From the NCBI GenBank assembly GCA_050287085.1, contig JBNKBE010000029.1, forward strand, positions 1-64,000: a stretch of DNA of 64,000 nt, written 5' to 3'. The position numbers and the translations under genes were made by a program. The notes beneath the pieces were generated by a model, which saw only the letters and a list, made by a program, of their open reading frames with translations, had not been told where the DNA came from and did no database searches. Below, piece after piece: positions 7,349 to 30,740 of the stretch. This DNA is from Polyangiaceae bacterium. GTDB lineage: Bacteria > Myxococcota_A > Polyangia > Polyangiales > Polyangiaceae. Each line of letters starts with the position of its first letter. Within the stretch, counting starts at the first letter, position 1.

Positions 7349-7680
7349 GACGTCTGGTGGATGCGAGCAGGCCAGTGCCGTTGTGCTGTGATACGCTGCC
7401 AGCTCGACGGGGCTGCACTGCAGCTGGGACTCGGTCACCGTTTGCCCACGGGTGACGCTGCCACCGTACAGCGACCCGATCCGACTGTGTCAGGTAAACA
7501 CTCTCCACCGCAACGGCGTAGGCCACCAAGTCGCCCGCATCAGTCGAGCACCTCCCCCGACCGCGCGACGAGCGCTAGCGAGGAGCCGGGCAAGGGGGAG
7601 GCAGCGCCCGCAGGGCAAAGCCCGAGGACGCTGGGAGGGGGCCAAACCAGGCGCGGACGTTGGGTGGGGCCCAACCCATA
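7349..7680 (+). repeat. Longest copy of the inter-module repeat
   Basis: Contains segments matching 1647-1680, 3005-3150, 5703-5850 and 141-243. Confidence 0.75.
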
Positions 7681-18511: not shown

Positions 18512-18586
18512 GGCCAACGTAGCAGGTTTCAGCTCCGCCGACCGAGCGAACGCGAGGTCGGCGTCTGCTGCGAACCGGAGTTGGGA
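18512..18586 (-). other. attC site (short)
   Basis: Minus strand reads CCCAAC TCCGG TTCGCAGC AGAC GCCGACC..GGTCGGC GGA GCTGAAA CCTGCTAC GTTGGCC. Confidence 0.75.
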
Positions 18587-19176: not shown

Positions 19177-19262
19177 GCCCGCCCAACCTAGGTATTAAGC
19201 CGCCGGGGCCCATGTCGATGGCATTTCTATCCATTCAGATCCTGCATTCCAAGGGGTCAGCG

Positions 19263-19279
19263 GACTTTTCTACGACCTC
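19263..19279. mobile_element. Isolated IS1182-type terminal inverted repeat abutting the attC AAC
   Basis: Reverse complement GAGGTCGTAGAAAAGTC resembles the IS end GAGGCCGTAGGAAAACC at 27353. Confidence 0.55.
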
Positions 19280-19435
19280 AACGACCCTGGGTTTAACCCG
19301 CGGGGCTTTACGCGACAAGGCTGCTGGATGCCAGGCACTGAAATGAAAGCGGGCGGCGATCAGCCGCCTCATGCAGGAGAGGCCCCAGCAAGGCGAGGCG
19401 CTGCTAGCCCCGCCGGGTTCAAACCCTTGTTGGGC
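19280..19435 (-). other. attC site
   Basis: Minus strand reads GCCCAAC AAGGG TTTGAACC CGGCGGGG...CCCCGCGG GTTAAAC CCAGGGTC GTT, with internal hairpin GGCGGCGATCAGCCGCC. Confidence 0.85.
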
Positions 19436-19569
19436 GGCCCCGGATTGAATCCAGTAGTGCACTCCTGCGACGTGTGGGTCATCGTGCTTCTTTACGGCGA
19501 GCATCACGGAGGAGTTTGTCGTACCCGATGCTTGCGCATGTCCTGTCGAGCAGAGGCCGCGTGGGTTGG

Positions 19570-20274
19570 CTAGGGTTCGTCATTGGCGGCGTCCATGCTT
19601 TGTCGGGCATCGGCGGACGGGAGCTCGTTGGCGACCAGTTGCAGTAGTCGCTTGATGGTTTCAGCTGCCGGCATCGGACGTTCTTGGGCTGGTATACAGC
19701 GAGACATTCGACCATCGGTCAGGAGACGTATCTTGGCCTCGATGATTCCGTCAATCGCCATCGCTGATTGGGTGAAGCGGGCCCGGGGTGTCTCTGCCAG
19801 GCTCACAAAATGAAGTTCTCGACAACGGGCGGCGATCGGTCCTTCGTCGAAGCGAAGAATAGAGGAGCTGTGTGCGAACTCGTTTCGGATTCTGCGAATC
19901 AAGTGGAGGTCTCTTCGCGCGGACGTTGGAATGAGCCCGAGCAAATACGACACATCGATGCGTGCGGAGAAGGTGGCCAACGCAGCGGTCCCGCGGAACA
20001 ACGGATCGCTTGCTGAAGTATCGTCGACTAGGAACGCGCGAAGCACCTGCGCCAGCTTGTCTTCGAGGTGCGCGGTGGCAAATAGTGCCGCTCCACGATC
20101 AGTCTCGCGGGTGAGTTCGCGGCGGAACACAAGGACGTCCAACTCGACGAAGTCGTCGGGCAGTCCGAGGCTTGTCAGAGCGGAGGCAAACGCCTTGTGC
20201 AGGGCCTCCGGATCGGGTGTGCCCATCCGAGCGCCTAGATCAGCTGGAATGTCGTCGTCGTTCGAGTTTGGCAT
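19570..20274 (-). CDS. MtlR-like / HEPN-related protein
   Basis: ETDRGAAL...LEDKL; LATFSARI..YLLGLI...DLHLIRRIRNEFAH (RxxxxH). RBS AGGAGG before the ATG at 20274. Confidence 0.75.
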   Translation of the reverse strand: MPNSNDDDIPADLGARMGTPDPEALHKAFASALTSLGLPDDFVELDVLVFRRELTRETDRGAALFATAHLEDKLAQVLRAFLVDDTSASDPLFRGTAALATFSARIDVSYLLGLIPTSARRDLHLIRRIRNEFAHSSSILRFDEGPIAARCRELHFVSLAETPRARFTQSAMAIDGIIEAKIRLLTDGRMSRCIPAQERPMPAAETIKRLLQLVANELPSADARQSMDAANDEP

Positions 20275-20489
20275 GTTCCTCCTTCGAGACCCCGGCGAGC
20301 AGCCGTCTGGCCGCTTGCGTCGCGCCCTTGCTGGTGGACCGCAACCATACCACTGAGTTCGGCGCTGCTCCATTTGAGGTTTGCCCCGCGAGCTGTCAGT
20401 GAGAACGTGAGGCTGTTTCCTGCGGAAGTTCGCAGGAAAGCTGGCGGCGCCCTGCCTTCAGGAGGAGGCAAGTTATGGGTCCGCCCAAC

Positions 20490-20679
20490 GAGGCCGTAGG
20501 AGAACCCACCTGCGAGGCGAGCGCAACCTCGCCGGTCCCCGATTGGCGGATTTTTGTGATCCATGTCCAGGGCTCGCGTCTCGTTCGCCCCAGCGGCGCC
20601 CTCAGGGCGCCGCTGGGGCCCTGCTAGGCTCTGCCTGGCGGGGTGGCGCCCGCTATCTTTTCTATGTTGTGGACCAACG
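20490..20679 (-). mobile_element. IS1182-family right-end remnant (190 bp)
   Basis: Near-identical to 27353-27542. Begins immediately after GCCCAAC. Confidence 0.8.
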
Positions 20680-20933
20680 GCGTGCAGGCGTTGAACTCAG
20701 AGGACTTGTCGGCGTGTCATCCTCGCTTTCTGATCGTCATCGAAGCACTGAATCGAAGGTACTCAACAGCGGCGTCTCTGATGTTGCGCCATAGGGGCGC
20801 TGTTTCAGAGGAGGACTATCGTGAATGGCCGGCCTTTCGAGAGTTTCGTGACCGCGCTGAGTTCCGGAATGCATTTCGCCAGCTGTTTCGAAAGGACTAC
20901 GTGCCTCAGCTCGACGTCTCTGCGTCAGGCTAA
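20680..20933 (+). pseudogene. 3' fragment of an inverted cassette gene
   Basis: ...YREWPAFREFRDRAEFRNAFRQLF...SG* ends in the TAA of the attC GGCTAAC. The 5' end is replaced by the IS remnant. Confidence 0.5.
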
Positions 20934-21088
20934 CGGCTTGCCAATAGCCCGCGGGGAGCTATTGGCAAGACCTACCAGGATGCGAGGCTACCAGCAAACC
21001 GTGGCGGCGACTAGCCGCCACCTCCAGGAGGCCTTCAAGCGGAGCCAGGCGCTTCAGGATCCCCGTCGGGTTCATTGGCTTTATGGGT
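20928..21088 (-). other. attC site (family shared with 23802 and 28133)
   Basis: GGCTAACGGCTTGCCAATAGCCCGCGGGG...CCCCGTCGGGTTCATTGGC imperfect inverted repeat. R'' box degenerate. Confidence 0.85.
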
Positions 21089-21158
21089 AGTCCGTCCTGG
21101 TTTTTGGAGCTTTGGGCCTCAGCTGCAAAGCTCTCGGAGTTGGGACATGCACCCGAGG

Positions 21159-22202
21159 CTACGAATCTTCATTGGCGATATGGGTAGTCCGTCCAGTTGA
21201 GAGCGCAATCGCCAGACGCCTCAGTATTCTGGGCACCGCGACGTCCAGCCAGTTGAGCGCTGCGGAGATCGCAGGCTCCTCGGCGTGCCCCGAGTGCAGT
21301 AGCGAACTGCGGACATCGTATGCGTTCTTTATGTTCCTCTCGGCCTCGTCTTCAGTTTCCTCCAGCTCGAGTGCGTGCTCGCGCGCCATTCGCCGTAGGC
21401 CAGCCGAAATCGATTCCCGCTTCAGAGCCGCGATGCGAGCGCGTACACGCTTGACGGCAGCGGCAGACTCGGGGTCTTTGTCGGTCTCGTCAGAGTCAGA
21501 AAGAGCCGTGAGCGCCTTCTCGAGCAGCTGCACGTCTCGCGGTGCGACGTGAGCAGGCGGCAGGAGTGTTTCGAGTGATGTTGTCAGAGAGACGAGGCGA
21601 GCGCGACCAGACTCACCGAGGGCCGTGGCGTAGAGCTCGATCGCCAAAGATAGCCGCGCGTCCCGCGCTACTGCGTCTGGCTGCCGGAGGCCCAGGTTCT
21701 CAGCGAGCCGCTTCAATAGACGCGCAGCTGGCGTCTGGATTGTTGCATGGACATCCCCGGCTCCGTACTCCGTGATGCGCAAGTGGTCCGGCACTATTGC
21801 GGCTGGCGAGCTATGAATCCAACCATCAAGATGAGTCCAGCCGGTGGCCACTAGAAACCGAAAGTTCGGGTTCTGTTGGATGTCGATTGGCGCGTCCTCC
21901 ATGTTCACCGTCTGCAGCCGAGTCTCGGGAATCAAGCTGAAACCGTCTTCCACTACGAGCTGAAGCACTGCACCAGCGAGCTTCGGTAGAAACTCCCTGG
22001 CATCCGACTCTTTGGAGAAGCCAGCAATGAGCAGCCTGTCGCGGCCACTGACGCGGAGCGCTTGGAGGGAAAGCCCGTTGAGCTCAACCCGGCCGTCCTC
22101 GTGGGCCGTCAACATTCGCCCAGGTCCGACGCGAACAGGGACGCTGAGTGTGTAAGCAGCAGGGCCGGTGCCCGAAGAGGCCTTCCGTATGTAGAGGTTC
22201 AT
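21159..22202 (-). CDS. ApeA-like HEPN domain protein (putative RNase)
   Basis: RLVSLTTSLETL helix and C-terminal YDVRSSLLHSG (RxxxxH). Confidence 0.7.
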   Translation of the reverse strand: MNLYIRKASSGTGPAAYTLSVPVRVGPGRMLTAHEDGRVELNGLSLQALRVSGRDRLLIAGFSKESDAREFLPKLAGAVLQLVVEDGFSLIPETRLQTVNMEDAPIDIQQNPNFRFLVATGWTHLDGWIHSSPAAIVPDHLRITEYGAGDVHATIQTPAARLLKRLAENLGLRQPDAVARDARLSLAIELYATALGESGRARLVSLTTSLETLLPPAHVAPRDVQLLEKALTALSDSDETDKDPESAAAVKRVRARIAALKRESISAGLRRMAREHALELEETEDEAERNIKNAYDVRSSLLHSGHAEEPAISAALNWLDVAVPRILRRLAIALSTGRTTHIANEDS

Positions 22203-22243
22203 TGCTTCGGATGTAGGAACGTGAGCGGGTGCGTCGGGCTAAC

Positions 22244-22290
22244 GAGCATGTAGGAAAACCCACCGCCGAGATCAGCGCAACCCCGCCCGG
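22244..22290 (-). mobile_element. Diverged IS1182-type end
   Basis: GAGCATGTAGGAAAACCCACC...AGCGCAACC, directly after GGCTAAC. Confidence 0.55.
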
Positions 22291-22333
22291 CGCAGCTGCT
22301 GCCCGCATTCCGCCTTAACTGCACTTCTGGGGG

Positions 22334-22481
22334 GGCCGACGGCTTGTTTTTAAGTCGCCAGGGGCCACGCGAAAAGGGGAATCGTGAGGAACAATCCCAG
22401 AATAGGGCGGCGATCAGCCGCCACCCTATTCTGCAAGGCGAGAGGCCGATGCCCCTGGTCGGTTTCAAAAACTTGTTAGCC
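22334..22481 (-). other. attC site
   Basis: Minus strand reads GGCTAAC AAGTT TTTGAAAC CGAC CAGGGG...CCCCTG GCG ACTTAAA AACAAGCC GTCGG, with internal GGCGGCGATCAGCCGCC. Confidence 0.8.
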
Positions 22482-22503
22482 AGCAACCGGCTGCAGTCTT
22501 TGG

Positions 22504-22824
22504 TCAGTCTTCTCTGAATCCGCAAGCGACGAGCAGAGCGGTTTCGACATCGAGCCAGCGCTCGTTGGGAAGTGTGCAAATGACGGCACCGATTCGATCG
22601 CGTTGCGCGAGCGACACGTGGTCGAAGTTGAGTGCAGAGGTGGTTGGCATCCCGTCATCCTCAGTAAGGATCACCTCAGTCGAGAGGCCACGGATGGTTC
22701 GAGTGACCGGGGCGACGATGATTTCGTTGAGACGCCCGAGGACACTGTCCCTGGTCAGGATGAGTACAGGTCAGCGTTTGTCGGGGGAGCGAAAGGTGTA
22801 CCAGCGGATATCGCCTCTGTTCAC
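22504..22824 (-). pseudogene. mazF: PemK/MazF-family toxin with premature stop
   Basis: Manual translation MNRGDIRWYTFRSPDKR*PVLILTRD..LNEIIVAPVTRTIRGL..EV.L...GMP...LNFDH. TGA at 22771-22773 replaces the Arg of KRRP. Confidence 0.9.
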
Positions 22825-23024
22825 TCGAAGTTCTCCCAGCCGTCAGCGTCCCAGGCGAGGGGGTCTACATCAGAATCAAACTCATCGGGGGAAACTGGTG
22901 CAGCTTCATACGTTTGAGCGTCAGTTCTTGAATTGGCTGCGAGTTTGAACAGACGCAGCCGTTCTTTGGGGCTGAGACGGGTGAAAAGCGGAAGGAGCTC
23001 TTCTGCTGTCAGGGGCTGAGCCAT
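22821..23024 (-). CDS. Putative antitoxin upstream of the MazF-type toxin
   Basis: 67 aa with an acidic C-terminus. GTGA overlap with the toxin start. Confidence 0.7.
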   Translation of the reverse strand: MAQPLTAEELLPLFTRLSPKERLRLFKLAANSRTDAQTYEAAPVSPDEFDSDVDPLAWDADGWENFE

Positions 23025-23384
23025 CGGAGAATACTACCAGCCTTGGGGAGAGCCAGGCCAGGGCCATGTGCCGAGGGGTCTTGACCGAAACGTGAGCCAG
23101 GGATGGGCCAAACTGGCGCGTTTCGGCCCGTTCAGGTCCCCACAGCGGGGAAGTCGACAGGAACGTTGGTCCCCGGATTGAGCCGCCCCTGAAACTGAGG
23201 CCCGGGAAACGCCTCAAGGACCTTGATGGTCCCGACAATAATATGTCTGTTGAAGGCCTCAAGGTCCTCAGCGGGAACCCAAAGCTCCTGATGAGTAGAA
23301 CCAGTGGCGTCTTGGACGGATACCGTCTTGCGAAGGCGTTATCGAGCTCGAACTGGGTGACAAACCCAATGAAGCCAGAGAAGA

Positions 23385-23801
23385 TACCTCGCTGAGGATC
23401 TGAGCGTCGCGTCGATCGGTCTTGATGCCCCTGCTACCGACGCCGAGTGTGCGGACCAGTGTAGCGGGGACGACGCGAACTTGGTGACCGCAGGCAGCCG
23501 CGGCTTCGGCAATCCGGTAGGCCTCGGTGCAGCTCTCGAGGATGGCACGACTCTGGCCTCGCTGCCGAAGCAAGGCAGCGAGAGAACGTGTCAACGCGCG
23601 AGCTTCGTGAACGAGGTAACCGCGCTCGTCGCGGATACAGACTTGGGAAGCGCGACCTCCGAGGTCGATGGCGATGTGCTCCATGGTGAGGCACCTGTCT
23701 TGGAGTTGAGAAGCAAAGTGTGACTCACAGGGCATCTCGTGTGGCCTGGATCTGCATCCGAAGCGCCTTTGGTCCCTGAGAGCGTCACTTGCATCTCATC
23801 T
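23385..23801 (-). mobile_element. IS110-family element remnant (5' non-coding region plus N-terminal DEDD domain)
   Basis: MEHIAIDLG...ILESC...GHQVRVV...KTDRRDA, truncated after the RuvC-like domain. Its upstream end abuts a truncated attC. Confidence 0.85.
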
Positions 23802-23936
23802 GGGAGCTACGGCAAGACCTTTCAGGATGCGAGGCTACCAGCAATCTGTGGCGGCGACCAGCCGCCACCTGCAGGAGACCTTCAAGCGGAGCGAGGCGCG
23901 TCAGGCTCCCCGTCGGTGTTCATTGGCGTGATAGCC
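23802..23936 (-). other. attC site missing its R' arm (interrupted by IS110)
   Basis: GGGAGCTACGGCAAGACCTTTCAGGATGCGAGGCTACC...CCCCGTCGGTGTTCATTGGC matches about 20953-21080 and 28155-28281. Confidence 0.8.
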
Positions 23937-23968
23937 TTCCTCCGTCATCTTGCGACACCAATTGCTGG

Positions 23969-24916
23969 TCAGTGTGACAGCACTGGCGCTGGTGGCGCCG
24001 ACGGCGTTGAACTCGGCACGAGCGATGGCGAGCGAGGCACCATAACGTACTTGATGTAGTAGAGGCACAACTCAAGACGGAGTCGTGACTCGAAGCACGG
24101 CAGGAGCGTCGTTCTGATCTTCTCCTTTGCCTCCAAGTCAGCTTCTTCACAAAGCTGCTTGCCATAGGTGCTAATGGACAGGGCGGCTGAGAAAACCGCC
24201 CCGTCTACTGGGAGCTCCAGACGATGAACTATGATCGATCCAATGGACGCTTCGCCATCGCGGGTACTCGCTACATAGGACTTCTCACGAATCCCAGTTC
24301 GCTTGTCCGCGTGGAAGAGGAAGCCACGGTCTCTCGCCACCATCACGTGATGAAAGCCAGTTCGCGAGTCGTTCGCGAGCGCGTCAAGCTCAAGGTCGTC
24401 CTCACTATTGATTCGGACGAGCCACCCCCAGCCATCGCCGACATCGCATGCGAGGCTGACACCGACTTGATCGATGTCCATACCGTGAACGTCTACGAGC
24501 GCTCGCTGCAGGTGTTCCAGGATGCACCGGAGCTGCACCTCAGGGCGTGTGATTTGCTCAAACGGATGAGCGGGAAGAGGGCACTTCTCCTTCCTCACGA
24601 AACTGGCAAAACGCTCAAACTTGGCGCGTGTGATTCCGTTGGTCGACTTGAGAAGGCGTGCCAGAACGTAGTCGTTGTTGTTCCGGACCGTGATCTCATA
24701 GTTAACGGCTTTGGCCTTGGCGATCGAGAACGCGGAGGCAAGGACGATGACAACCGTACCCAGAACCAGTTCGAGCGTGCCAATCTCGATGTCGAACAGC
24801 CGCAGAGCAAGACCGACAAGTCCGGGAAGCGGCGGGATTAGGCCCGCGACTAGCCAGTGTTCGACGAAAAATGCGAACACCCGACGCGGCCACCGCTGCG
24901 CTCCCCCGGGGTCCAT
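23969..24916 (-). CDS. Two-TM membrane protein with a GAF-like-looking cytoplasmic domain
   Basis: Two N-terminal hydrophobic helices; GSII...L....AALSISTYGKQL C-terminal pattern. Confidence 0.65.
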   Translation of the reverse strand: MDPGGAQRWPRRVFAFFVEHWLVAGLIPPLPGLVGLALRLFDIEIGTLELVLGTVVIVLASAFSIAKAKAVNYEITVRNNNDYVLARLLKSTNGITRAKFERFASFVRKEKCPLPAHPFEQITRPEVQLRCILEHLQRALVDVHGMDIDQVGVSLACDVGDGWGWLVRINSEDDLELDALANDSRTGFHHVMVARDRGFLFHADKRTGIREKSYVASTRDGEASIGSIIVHRLELPVDGAVFSAALSISTYGKQLCEEADLEAKEKIRTTLLPCFESRLRLELCLYYIKYVMVPRSPSLVPSSTPSAPPAPVLSH

Positions 24917-24924
24917 TTTTGGTG

Positions 24925-25140
24925 TCAGCTCTCTTCGAAGCTCGGCAGCGCCTGAAGATCGCAGCGCACTAACCGGTTCGAGTCGGATATCGCCTGATCG
25001 TCGCCGGATTGGTAGGAAAACGCCAGGCGGTTCTTGGATGAGATGTGCTCAGGTACTCGGCGGAATGGGCGGGTAACTGCGCGCCAGAATGTGTCAGCCG
25101 ATGCGTCCGCCCCCAGCCGCGTCCGGTCGTTGGTCTTCAT
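24925..25140 (-). CDS. Small hypothetical protein
   Basis: 71-aa ATG ORF ending 8 nt before the membrane protein start, preceded by an AT-richer region. Confidence 0.4.
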   Translation of the reverse strand: MKTNDRTRLGADASADTFWRAVTRPFRRVPEHISSKNRLAFSYQSGDDQAISDSNRLVRCDLQALPSFEES

Positions 25141-25299
25141 TGGTTATGGAAACGTACTTGGAAGACCGGCGGGGTGCCAACAGTCAGAACAAATATGTGG
25201 GCAAAGGTGGTGGATAATTGCTGTGGCTTTGTAGGCTGGCAATTTGGCGCAGCTCAAACCAGTGAACACCATTGGCGGCGGACCCGGCCGTGGCTGTCA

Positions 25300-25456
25300 G
25301 GCTAACGCCCTGCCATTCTGCCGCCGCGCAGGGCGCCACAGGTTACAACGACCGGCCTCCACGACCAACGGGAGTGAAGAGGCGGCGGCCGCGGGATGAC
25401 GTCTCTGCGAAGCGACAGCCTACACGGTCGCGGTCGGCAGAAATCGCCTGTTTGCC
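25300..25456 (-). other. attC site
   Basis: GGCTAACGCCCTGCCATTCTGCCGCCGCG...CGCGGTCGGCAGAAATCGCCTGTTTG. Confidence 0.75.
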
Positions 25457-25475
25457 GGCCTACGATATTTGGCTT

Positions 25476-26999
25476 TCATGGTCCGGTGGAGTCAACGCGT
25501 CCAAAGATCGCATTCAGTGCACCGGAGATCCGGGAGGACTGGGTTCTTAACGCATCGAGGGTAGTCTTTAGCTGCCCGTCGTGAACCTGAATAAGTCGAA
25601 TGTACTTGCCTGAATCGATATCGGTTGCATCGAAAAGGATGTCGATGACCCGACCGTTGGCGATAGACCCGGTAGCATGCCACAGGAAGCGCGGCAGACT
25701 CCGTCCAAGCAAGCCGTGCATCTCTTCATTGGAGGGTAGGGACCACGTCGCGGCGTCCGCGCGAAAATCTCGAAGCGATGTGAGTCGCAAGTCCCAGGTG
25801 ACGTTGCCTAGTTGAGGCACGATCGCGCTTAGGACGCGAAATATAGTGTCGAGGTCCAGGAGGTCCTTTAGAGGTCGCCGGAAGGAAAGTCGTATCTTGT
25901 TGTAGAGCGGGAAGAGTACAGCTTGGGGAATTGCACGGATTCCAGCGTACTGACCCCCCAGGCCCCAGGAGGTCGAGAGACTCCAGTCGGGAGTGCCTGA
26001 GGCGGCACCAAATTCCATCCTGGCGTGAGGGCCGACCTGGTCGTCATGTACATACAGCTTGTCGATTCCCGACGAGCGCAGCAGTGTATTCCCAAATATC
26101 GGTGGGTCTTGGTTGGACGGGATGCTGTAGCCCGTAGTGGCGGCCGCGTGATAACCGATCTCGACAGGCGTGCCGTCTTGTTCACCTACGATCTTGAAGA
26201 TGAGTAGGCCGGGAATGCCTCCCGCGACGTAGGCATAGATTGCGGCTTTGGTCGCGAGTTCATCGGCAGCGTCGACATAAAATGGTTCCAAACCGATTGA
26301 GCGAATGGCGTGGGCCATTTGTTCGATTGTCAGTCCGTCTGCATTCGGGAAAACCCGCTGACGCATGGGCATCCGGTCAGTTGCCCAACGGGTGATCTCT
26401 ACCGGCGAGAGCGGGGAGTGCTGGAATGTCTGACCGGTCACATTGAGCGCAGACCAAAGTGCACTGGTGGCACATGCTGCGGTCACCTGGTCTTGTTCCT
26501 GAAAGGGGACGGTGCTGACAGCAAGCTCCAGACCGGACAGATTGGCTCGGCAGCTCACGCTGGTCGTGAAATGTCGACGGCCACCGTCCGAATCGTAGTG
26601 AGCTAGAGCGGTTCTGCCGACCACGCTGCGAGGTAGCGGTCTAACCACCAAGAAGCCGCGATAGCTTTGCTTAATAGCTTCTGCTTCTTGACCCTCTGGA
26701 GCCCGAATCGCAGTGAAGAACTGACTTTGGTCGAATGTCGAGGCAAAGAAGTGCAGACGTGTACAGTGACGTTTGTACGGATGAAAACACTTTACGTAAT
26801 AAGCGGCGAAGTCGTTCAGATAGTCATGGTCCACATAGGGCCTTTCGACGACCATCGTTTCGACGCCAACCCGGGCGAAGTAGTCCTCAAAGTAGCGATT
26901 CTTGAGCTTCGCCGCGATGAGCTCGGCTGAAGCTTCGGATGCCACCCTTAGCTGCTCGGCGAAGCTCTCTATTGAATATGCCAGAACAGCGGTCGACAT
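25476..26999 (-). CDS. Uncharacterised papain/C39-like cysteine peptidase-fold protein
   Basis: FQEQDQVTAACATSALW (Gln...Cys), GYHAAATTGY (His), LYVHDDQVGP (Asp). Confidence 0.7.
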   Translation of the reverse strand: MSTAVLAYSIESFAEQLRVASEASAELIAAKLKNRYFEDYFARVGVETMVVERPYVDHDYLNDFAAYYVKCFHPYKRHCTRLHFFASTFDQSQFFTAIRAPEGQEAEAIKQSYRGFLVVRPLPRSVVGRTALAHYDSDGGRRHFTTSVSCRANLSGLELAVSTVPFQEQDQVTAACATSALWSALNVTGQTFQHSPLSPVEITRWATDRMPMRQRVFPNADGLTIEQMAHAIRSIGLEPFYVDAADELATKAAIYAYVAGGIPGLLIFKIVGEQDGTPVEIGYHAAATTGYSIPSNQDPPIFGNTLLRSSGIDKLYVHDDQVGPHARMEFGAASGTPDWSLSTSWGLGGQYAGIRAIPQAVLFPLYNKIRLSFRRPLKDLLDLDTIFRVLSAIVPQLGNVTWDLRLTSLRDFRADAATWSLPSNEEMHGLLGRSLPRFLWHATGSIANGRVIDILFDATDIDSGKYIRLIQVHDGQLKTTLDALRTQSSRISGALNAIFGRVDSTGP

Positions 27000-27025
27000 C
27001 GCTTCGTGGAGATCGACTCAGAAGT

Positions 27026-27214
27026 TCAGAGCGTAATCGGTGTCCGAAGCTTCCGTGGATCGAGGCACTCCGCTTGTTTCAGAATCTGCAGGGCACGGCT
27101 CTGCGATTTGCTGTAGGCGTCAAACTTCGTGGCGGCGTCTTCGCTACGCACAAAGTTTTCCACTGCGGATTTCAACTCTCGCAGGGTCTGCTCGTTGTCG
27201 GAGGCATTCGGCAC
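27026..27214 (-). CDS. 62-aa partner protein, copy A
   Basis: GTG start gives 62 aa. Gapless homology to 28971..29159. Lies 26 nt upstream of the peptidase. Confidence 0.7.
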   Translation of the reverse strand: MPNASDNEQTLRELKSAVENFVRSEDAATKFDAYSKSQSRALQILKQAECLDPRKLRTPITL

Positions 27215-27226
27215 GGTACGCAAAGG

Positions 27227-27254
27227 ATTCTGGGAGAGTCTGATCATTTGTCAA
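27227..27254 (-). promoter_or_regulatory. Possible sigma70-type promoter for the small-protein/peptidase pair
   Basis: Minus strand TTGACA-N16-CAGAAT just upstream of the GTG. Confidence 0.35.
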
Positions 27255-27352
27255 GGCGAAACAGGTTCGCCCTGGTATCGCGATTTCGCTGGGACACGCT
27301 GCAATATCCACGCCAAAGGCGAACCACAGGCTCTCAGCTTGGTCCGCCCAAC

Positions 27353-28132
27353 GAGGCCGTAGGAAAACCCACCTGCGAGGCGAGCGCAACCTCGCCGGTC
27401 CCCGATTGGCGGATCTTTGTGATCTATGTCCAGGGCTCGCGTCTCGTTCGCCCGGGCGGCGCCCTCAGGGCCCCGCTGGGGCCCTGCTAGGCTCTGCCTG
27501 GCGGGGTGGCACCGGCTATCTTTTCTATGTTGTGGACCAACGTGAAGAGCTGCCACTGGGCGCTCACTTTGCGCTGCCCGCGCAGCGTGAATCGACGCAT
27601 ACCCTTGTTCTGCAAGTTGCCGAAGACGGGTTCGACGGTGCCCATACGGCGGCTGTAGAGCTCTCTGCCGACGGGGCTGTCGAACTTGAAACGCATTCGC
27701 TCGGCGGGTGAGCTGTGCTTGGGTCGGTGCTTTGGTAGTGGCCCAACCTGCTCTTTGATCACGGTCAGCTGACGCTGCGGAGTACGGTAGGGATGTCGCA
27801 GACACTGGTGTCGCAGATGGCAGCCGCGACAGGCCGTCAGCGGCGCTCTGAAGCGGTCGACGAGGTAGCCGTTGAACAACATGCTGGTGCCGCTCTTGTA
27901 AAGCCTCTGCCCCGCGGGACAGATGCAGAGCGCTCGCGCTGCGTCGTAAGAGGCCCTTCGTAGCCCGACCCGTGAGGCTCAGCCTGGACGACGAATTGGC
28001 CGCGCTCATCTACGACGGCAAGTCCGTTGTTCCCTGCAGAACGCCGCGAGAGCTCGTCGTCTTCGCGCTCTCGGGATCGGTGAGGTTGCTCTTCTGTTCG
28101 TTGCCAGAGGGGCCGCGCTTCTTGCCGACCTC
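27353..28132 (-). mobile_element. Internally deleted IS1182-family element flanked by AAC on both sides
   Basis: Transposase fragments KSNLTDPESAK..GVLQG..VVD..Q and YSRRMGTVEPVFGNL..KGMRRFTLRG..KV..QW.L..LVHNIEK. Context GCCCAAC|GAGG...CCTC|AACGGCTTG. Confidence 0.8.
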
Positions 28133-28291
28133 AACGGCTTGCCAATAGCCCGCGAGGAGCTACCGGCAAGACCTTTCAGGTAGCGAGGCTACCGGCAAAC
28201 CGTGGCGGCTACCAGACGCCACCTTCAGGAGACCTTCAAGCTGAGCGAGGCGCTTCAGGCGCCCCGTCGGAGTTTCTTGGCCTTGGTGGGC
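28133..28291 (-). other. attC site
   Basis: AACGGCTTGCCAATAGCCCGCGAGG...CCCCGTCGGAGTTTCTTGGCC, closely similar to 20928-21088. Confidence 0.85.
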
Positions 28292-28739: not shown

Positions 28740-28943
28740 CTAGTACGCGGCGAAGTCGTCGATGTAGTCGTGATCGATGTAGTCGCGTTCGACGACGATC
28801 GTCTTGACCTGGAGCGTCTTGAAATAGTCCTCGAAGTAGTTCGAACGCAGCTTGCTTCCGACAACCGCTTCCGACGCATCGGTGTTTTGGATGAGGAGCC
28901 TTCGGAGAGCCTCAATGCTATACGATTCGACTTGGAAAGGCAC
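28740..28943 (-). pseudogene. Truncated paralog (N-terminal 67 aa) of the 25476..26999 peptidase
   Basis: YSIE..KL..YFEDYF...V.T.VVER.Y.DHDY..DFAAY aligns without gaps to the N-terminus of copy A, then TAG. Confidence 0.85.
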
Positions 28944-30556: not shown

Positions 30557-30690
30557 AGGGCTTCGACGAGAAAGTCCTGGCCCTCTACGCCCGCGGCATG
30601 ACCACCCGCGACATCCAGGGGCACCTGCGAGAGCTGCTCGTTCTACGTGGCCATGGGCGTGGGCGTCGACGGGCACCGCGATGTCCTTGG
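30555..30690 (+). mobile_element. IS256-family transposase fragments
   Basis: GFDEKVLALYARGMTTRDIQGHLREL and YVAMGVGVDGHRDVLG. Confidence 0.8.
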
Positions 30691-30740
30691 GCGAGCAGGC
30701 CGCCGAGCGAGTGGGGGCACTTCCGGGGGGCTTGAGCGAG

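Follow-up and report, generated by a model that had tools for sequence, protein, structure and literature searches.

Two lineages of mobile elements are described as homing to the attC sites of integron cassettes, namely the IS1111-attC group, a monophyletic subgroup of insertion sequences (IS) with a fixed place and orientation in attC (PMC3001079, PMC11187229), and the group IIC-attC introns, an attC-specific lineage within a palindrome-favouring family (PMC3001079). More generally, IS elements are reported from a quarter of complete integrons (PMC4889954). Within the IS1182 family, IS1272 is described as targeting hairpins and deleting sequence instead of duplicating it (PMC4923244, PMC5678879), and some members are stated to target palindromes (PMC4923244, citing Siguier 2015). 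Here we analyse a window of 64,000 nt (contig C29, GenBank JBNKBE010000029.1) from a Polyangiaceae assembly of 6.2 Mb and 63% GC, in which a decaying cassette array spanning 18.5-29.4 kb holds four IS remnants. Each of them stems from an insertion of its own by one of two sibling IS1182-family elements, at the GTT of the R' box of an attC site, with a 3-bp duplication and with the transposase oriented along the cassettes. We found IS1182 at attC in none of the literature searched; ISfinder, TnPedia, subscription papers and supplements lay outside the search and may record a named GTT-repeat member. IS1182 is unnamed in the main text of PMC7923331 and PMC12444791, and PMC9137128 and bioRxiv 2021.07.26.453812 mention it in an unrelated connection.

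Four insertions at the attC crossover triplet

The top strand of the array is the minus strand of the window, so that RYYYAAC read on the plus strand equals the core site R' (GTTRRRY); features of the array described below are on the minus strand unless stated otherwise. In the R''/R' consensus given in PMC12901181 and PMC8876359, crossover falls between G and TT. The layout along the array is an attC ending in GTT, then left inverted repeat (IRL), transposase and right inverted repeat (IRR), followed by GTTRRRY and the next cassette. An initial annotation of the window had placed IS ends directly after GCCCAAC (20490, 27353) and GGCTAAC (22244) on the plus strand, which are IRR ends, and an opposite end, an IRL end, directly before the AAC of the attC at 19280. 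All of these coordinates are correct, and the occurrence of IS ends at the attC triplet is real and exceeds chance.

Insertion 1 (19210-19279) is the upstream, IRL end (70 bp) of an element of type a, the remainder of which is deleted, and is 97% identical to an end on contig C58 that leads into a transposase start. It abuts AAC 19280-19282, the R' GTT of the occupied attC at 19280-19435 (ending in GTTGGGC, 19429-19435), whose fold is complete, with AAC still paired to GTT. On its other side deletion has fused it to the R'/L' arm of a truncated attC (19181-19209). Insertion 2 (20490-20679), also of type a, retains the downstream, IRR end of 190 bp including the 3' end of the transposase gene, its IRL having been lost together with its attC. 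The core site GTTGGGC of the next cassette (20483-20489) carries the second copy of the duplicated GTT, and an MtlR-like cassette gene (PF05068) lies downstream of the insertion at 19570-20373. The truncation ends exactly at another GTT within the transposase gene (20677-20679), joined there to a reverse-oriented gene fragment (20680-20934), either by chance or through an integrase event at a secondary site.

Insertion 3 (22244-22336) is a 93-bp IRR end of the sibling type b, 98-100% identical to ends on contigs C19, C58, C65 and C68, and adjoins the core site GTTAGCC (22237-22243) of the cassette with gene 21159-22202. The attC under it (22338-22481; R'' GTTAGCC, 22475-22481) reads GAC at R', the first A having gone at the deletion junction. 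The end itself reads GAGCATGTAG and is 65-66% identical over 60 nt to the ends at 20490 and 27353; since it belongs to a sibling element, the motif GAGGYCGTAG, put forward earlier for this IS end, misses it.

Insertion 4 (27353-28132) is a two-ended relic of type a with matches to PF13751 and NF033551. It differs from insertion 2 at 8 positions in 190 nt. Its IRR is intact, the transposase C-terminus occupies 27487-27950, and internal deletions lie at ~27952 (~308 bp) and 28125. It had been presented as flanked by AAC on both sides and as leaving a complete attC arm when removed. The flanks and the empty site, which reads like the R' arm at 20928, stand. At the 28132 end only 7 bp of IRL remain, fused to transposase sequence, and the occupied attC at 28133-28291 (R' GTT, 28133-28135) has a degenerate R'' (GGTGGGC, 28285-28291). 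That defect is a single base, and the unoccupied paralogues at 20928 and ~23790 are degenerate there too. On the far side, the core site GTTGGGC (27346-27352) begins the next cassette, with genes 27026-27247 and 25476-26999.

All four remnants are dead copies; their deletion breakpoints lie 7, 70, 93 and 190 bp inside the element and none at an IS tip. Unitigs of run X1, which may be the source sample and is a separate assembly but not independent data, bridge the junctions at 19210, 20679 and 28125 with at least 31 letters per side and that at 22336 with 29.

Copies elsewhere in the genome

Across the genome, the expected triplet is present at 18 of 20 ends, IRL ends following GTT in 7 of 8 cases and IRR ends following AAC in 11 of 12 (one partial chance match on contig C5 is left out of this count). 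The cassettes into which these 11 IRR ends lead are all different and each present in one copy, so the ends cannot stem from duplication of a single event. The genome encodes one integron integrase (IntI; 440 bits), on contig C15, where, in a complete integron with intI and a putative attI, the IS occupies the first attC that follows them and is oriented along the cassettes. No outward promoter or terminator rose above shuffled sequences in one full IS copy. The transposase fragments of this genome have NF033551 as their best match, at 184 and 89 bits, below its cut-off of 270 bits because they are partial; all of six full-length relatives pass (275-309 bits).

Relatives in other genomes

The elements found beyond this genome belong to one clade and have in common their position, a 3-bp duplication and an orientation that is fixed per lineage, with an occasional hairpin other than attC as the target. 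Two scans of GTDB gave 74 and 80 loci, out of ~1400 stretches estimated to exist there, and ends were called with an inverted-repeat motif blind to the flank. Before counting we dropped 11 weak end calls (L030, L035, L046, L056, L070, L072, L081, L082 twice, L083, L084), second-scan ends with a motif score below 1.5 and loci repeating places already included. In 127 loci, GTT/AAC stands at 98 of 99 distinct IRL flanks and 98 of 99 distinct IRR flanks (196/198 ends), and the same triplet is repeated in 86/86 two-ended loci, near-identical copies included. Together with the own-genome ends and the single clade, these counts bear out the proposal that a subgroup of IS1182 has the attC crossover triplet as its target. 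A flank-blind motif scan found the expected triplet at 6/6 transposase-linked ends versus 9/114 unlinked matches.

Outside one Nitrospirota metagenome-assembled genome (MAG), G233, which is treated below, C precedes GTT in 64 of 70 distinct sites, and the four bases after GTT match RRRY in full in 36/70 and at three or more positions in 62/70. A 4-bp duplication of CGTT is ruled out by four loci (L042, L061, L043, L048) that break CGTT/AACG on one side only, which fixes the repeat at 3 bp. One of the dropped ends, L084, was later found to have ATT on both sides. There the target's own ATT has been copied, as a staggered cut predicts and as recombination at G|TT would not give, and this favours a duplication made by the transposase.

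The flanks of these copies, which the initial annotation had proposed to tabulate, proved mostly to be those of attC sites: an attC score of at least 7 was reached in 58 of 86 flanks outside G233, versus 77 of 1000 own-genome CGTT sites and 40 of 448 locus controls, the score being home-made and the 448 controls including real attCs. An earlier hairpin score without the spacer separated the groups poorly.

The targeting rule is real and widespread. Among the transposases, the closest relatives were found in Polyangiaceae and other Myxococcota, and hosts include Myxococcota, Acidobacteriota, Thermodesulfobacteriota, Pseudomonadota, Verrucomicrobiota, Nitrospirota and Gemmatimonadota; a Pseudoalteromonas replicon shows the same pattern. 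As a raw count, IntI lies above the cut-off in 26 of 47 host genomes.

Transposase, clade and orientation

In a FastTree tree of 74 proteins, from which a list of 15 near-identical loci had been excluded beforehand, a single branch (support 100, length 1.15) unites 56 rows and leaves out the 18 control IS1182 transposases, all of the controls being from one phylum. The transposases combine DUF772 and DDE_Tnp_1_6, and D142, D306 and E484, putatively the catalytic triad as assigned from the motif, are invariant in 20/20. Terminal inverted repeats of the GAGGCTGTAGAAAAA type surround one transposase gene in elements of 1.74-1.89 kb, with 3' non-coding regions of ~120-190 nt in the relatives. The transposases have no match to the IS110 profile, the elements contain transposase domains only, with neither reverse transcriptase nor intron RNA, and Rfam gave no match in L085, the locus that holds the relic. 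A sequence search for relatives with a solved structure gave none. We also considered the IS as a cassette of its own with an attC-mimicking end and rejected this, as nine IRR ends score at most 4.2 and lack an attC fold.

CTAG-flanked elements are a known type within IS1182. From 151 genomes of the control phylum, 22 other IS1182 loci yielded 8 callable inverted-repeat pairs, among which CTAG-type ends were seen and none (0/8) was flanked by GTT/AAC; these ends were called with a generic inverted-repeat finder that is less powerful than the clade motif and may in some cases have picked up a hairpin in the flank. Three control loci (L094, L096, L097) have GC-rich inverted or repeated flanks and possibly represent a hairpin-duplicating type.

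Fifteen rows sit at the same R' GTT in the reversed orientation. Insertion at R'' was rejected for this class, since in these loci the attC is found downstream of the transposase, with the same GTT as its end (14/17 flanks pass the attC score). Nested within the clade, the reversed rows come out as one group of weak support (54), in the same polytomy as four forward elements, and the group is derived. Orientation at attC is fixed within each lineage.

A hairpin-loop lineage in Nitrospirota

G233 holds 21 copies of 1811 bp, all flanked by GTT, with a transposase that scores 276 bits against NF033551; the number and uniform length of the copies suggest recent activity. IntI had no match in this MAG at E 1e-30. 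None of the 21 copies reaches the attC score, and 19 of them lie in the (A/G)CGTTA loop of another hairpin, which shows the term attC-specific in the initial annotation to be too strict. As none of these copies is at an attC-like site and most lie in another hairpin, the target is better described as CGTT in structured DNA, usually attC, and because the G233 element is nested among attC-type elements the switch of target looks derived.

The hairpin occurs empty at 33 sites, versus 0 for the reversed pattern. Its stem has 90% pairing, and 3 two-sided changes occur among 12 copies, the site-selecting pattern itself fixing part of the stem. It belongs to a dispersed intergenic repeat of ~150-170 bp with terminal inverted repeats of 25-35 bp that vary between copies (loci L142-L149, L151, L187-L201 and L323-L334, with at least 33 empty and ~20 IS-occupied copies). 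The repeat is like a repetitive extragenic palindromic element (REP/REPIN) or a miniature inverted-repeat transposable element (MITE). Rfam gave no gathering-level family in the 10 of 15 G233 regions tested, and an origin as the end of an IS4 element was rejected, an IS4 gene adjoining only 2 of 24 loci examined. One copy (L160) lies clearly outside the hairpin repeat; it is followed by GTTAGTT, has no attC fold upstream and could be at an attI-like site.

Proposed mechanism and alternative explanations

The four insertions are independent events of a DDE clade within IS1182, placed after the R' GTT with the triplet duplicated, and we consider it likely that the transposase itself selects the site. 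Judging from the sequences compared, the enzyme would recognise CGTT in hairpin-forming DNA and cut with a 3-base stagger, by which the triplet would be duplicated. The upstream attC would then keep R''-L''-L'-G|TT and take GAGG after GTT from the IS, and with its arms and G|TT kept and GAGG gained it is likely still recombinogenic. Because landing duplicates GTT, the site probably remains usable and is not destroyed. Lacking an attC of its own, the IS would be treated by the integrase as the start, that is the 5' part, of the next cassette, and IS and cassette would be excised and moved together. The array would thereby serve as a renewable safe harbour in which no gene is cut, and the deletions would be later decay of IS copies.

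A wider reading, which we hold only tentatively, is that a widespread DDE clade recognises CGTT together with DNA structure, inserts at the integrase crossover while leaving it unbroken and becomes part of the next cassette, with IntI as a second vehicle; its recognition module would have flipped orientation in one lineage and moved to a hairpin loop in an integrase-free host.

Several observations weigh against site selection of this kind or its consequences. Two own-genome ends, both on contig C1, lack the expected triplet, and an empty, IS-free allele was found neither in the unitigs of run X1 nor among the relatives. The attC score, which 28 of 86 flanks outside G233 fail to reach, is home-made, and a covariance model of attC intended to replace it came out with no base pairs and was set aside. 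The ATT duplication is a single locus. Insertion geometry differs between the foot of the stem in attC and the loop in G233, and G233, being a MAG, may lack an unassembled intI. IntI is not found above the cut-off in 21 of 47 host genomes, many of them incomplete, and no hitch-hiking pair, that is the same IS and cassette behind different attCs, was found.

Alternatively, the insertions could inactivate attC or the cassette while the transposase drives deletions that erode the array, as the initial annotation supposed; this we regard as unlikely. All four copies in the window are deleted, three along with flanking DNA; the supposed seeding of deletions is an association only. Adjacent deletions start at an IS tip. 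The breakpoints here are all inside the elements, unlike such deletions, and decay is therefore the simpler reading; many relatives, moreover, are complete elements. As to inactivation, two occupied attCs (28133, 22338) each have one damaged R box, but the unoccupied paralogues of the first are equally degenerate, and AAC and GTT remain paired in the occupied attC at 19280. With R'', L'', L' and G|TT intact, GAGG supplied after GTT and no gene interrupted, the claim that cassettes are inactivated is unsupported. A 1.8-kb IS could nevertheless block read-through from the cassette promoter Pc, as described for a IIC-attC intron (PMC3001079).

Less probable still is a short sequence preference (CGTTR) alone, with the excess at attC produced by selection, other insertions being purged and those in arrays persisting. 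The G233 copies show that insertion can do without attC, the two targets clearly have only CGTTR in common, and the low-scoring third or so of flanks (28/86) would fit. However, a 5-base motif would occur thousands of times per genome, and yet 19 of the 21 identical-length G233 copies lie, the same way round, in one hairpin repeat with 33 empty sites; the orientation fixed within lineages at attC speaks against purging as well.

The transposase is retained as the likely agent over the integron integrase, which might act on a circularised IS whose ends are joined through GTT, recombining that junction with attC at G|TT to give the same product. The IS position equals the IntI crossover, IntI1 is described as able to use atypical GTT sites (PMC12901181), and 26/47 hosts have IntI above the cut-off. 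Against this stand the ATT on both sides of L084, 21 copies in a genome without an IntI match, the nine IS ends without attC fold and the intact acidic triad, and we judge integrase-made insertion very unlikely. Finally, descent of the four ends from one duplicated insertion, or misassembly at repeats, for which one could cite the 12 bp of outside flank common to the 20490 and 27353 ends and assembly breaks at IS copies, has a negligible probability, being refuted by unique flanks and downstream cassettes, two IS types, the 8 differences in 190 nt and the unitigs that bridge the deletion junctions.

Other features of the array

Further attC sites without an IS lie at 18512-18586 (R' GGCCAAC, 18512-18518 on the plus strand; R'' GTTGGGA, 18580-18586), at 20928-21092 (R' GGCTAAC intact, R'' degenerate; a paralogue of the attC at 28133) and at 25300-25456. 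The paralogues belong to a long-attC family with an extra hairpin in the R' arm, comprising 20928-21092, ~23790-23935 and 28133-28291 in the window and 2350-2545, 7365-7545 and 10120-10320 on contig C35 of the same genome (G000); the R'' box is degenerate in 5/6 copies and intact in one C35 copy. An IS110-family remnant (23268-23735; NF033542, E 5e-15) adjoins the copy at ~23790-23935, which lacks the R' arm, and the remnant region (23268-23800) represents a second IS type within the same array. A fragment of a Mutator (IS256-family) transposase (PF00872) lies just past the array at 30585-30735.

Among the cassettes, a PemK/MazF-like toxin-antitoxin cassette occupies 22504-23020, its toxin frame bearing a premature stop near 22771 and a PF02452 match on the downstream part. 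The cassette protein encoded at 25476-26999 (507 aa) has no Pfam or PADLOC match and a broken paralogue 2 kb away (28741-28900); its QxxxCA motif is presumably that of a cysteine-peptidase-like protein. PADLOC matched none of six cassette proteins tested.

Comparison with known attC-targeting and IS1182 elements

If the proposed mechanism is true, these elements would represent a third route of homing to attC, mechanistically unrelated to an RNA-guided recombinase or a retroelement, and the only one of the three that strikes the crossover triplet itself. This would bear on the break-up of chromosomal arrays into attC clusters without an integron integrase (CALINs) and on assembly breaks inside integrons. 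A single-protein transposase with near single-site specificity, together with natural switches of orientation and target, would lend itself to dissection, and the natural variants to working out how a structured target is located by a DDE enzyme. For now the clinical relevance seems low: only 3 of 72,556 plasmid records match at E 1e-30, all of them large marine replicons.

The elements resemble the IS1111-attC group (ISPa21, ISPst6, ISKpn4) in being a monophyletic IS subgroup at a fixed place and orientation in attC. That group is described as having a DEDD transposase with a seekRNA guide and subterminal inverted repeats, and as inserting near the 5' end of attC in antisense, whereas the elements studied here have a DDE enzyme, terminal inverted repeats and a 3-bp duplication and insert at the 3' end (R' GTT), mostly in sense. 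With the group IIC-attC introns (S.ma.I2) they have in common an attC-specific lineage. The introns, as described, are retroelements that insert into the bottom strand and separate a gene from its own attC, whereas in the array studied here gene and attC stay together and the IS precedes the next cassette. IS1272 and TnSha1 of staphylococci likewise belong to the IS1182 family and are described as using a hairpin-forming target, but with no sequence consensus, in both orientations and with part of the hairpin deleted and no duplication; the elements here have a near-invariant CGTT, a fixed orientation and a 3-bp duplication, and nothing is deleted at insertion. Other IS1182 elements of the CTAG-flanked and palindrome types have NF033551 and the domain pair DUF772 and DDE_Tnp_1_6 in common with them, but fall outside the clade that lands on GTT.

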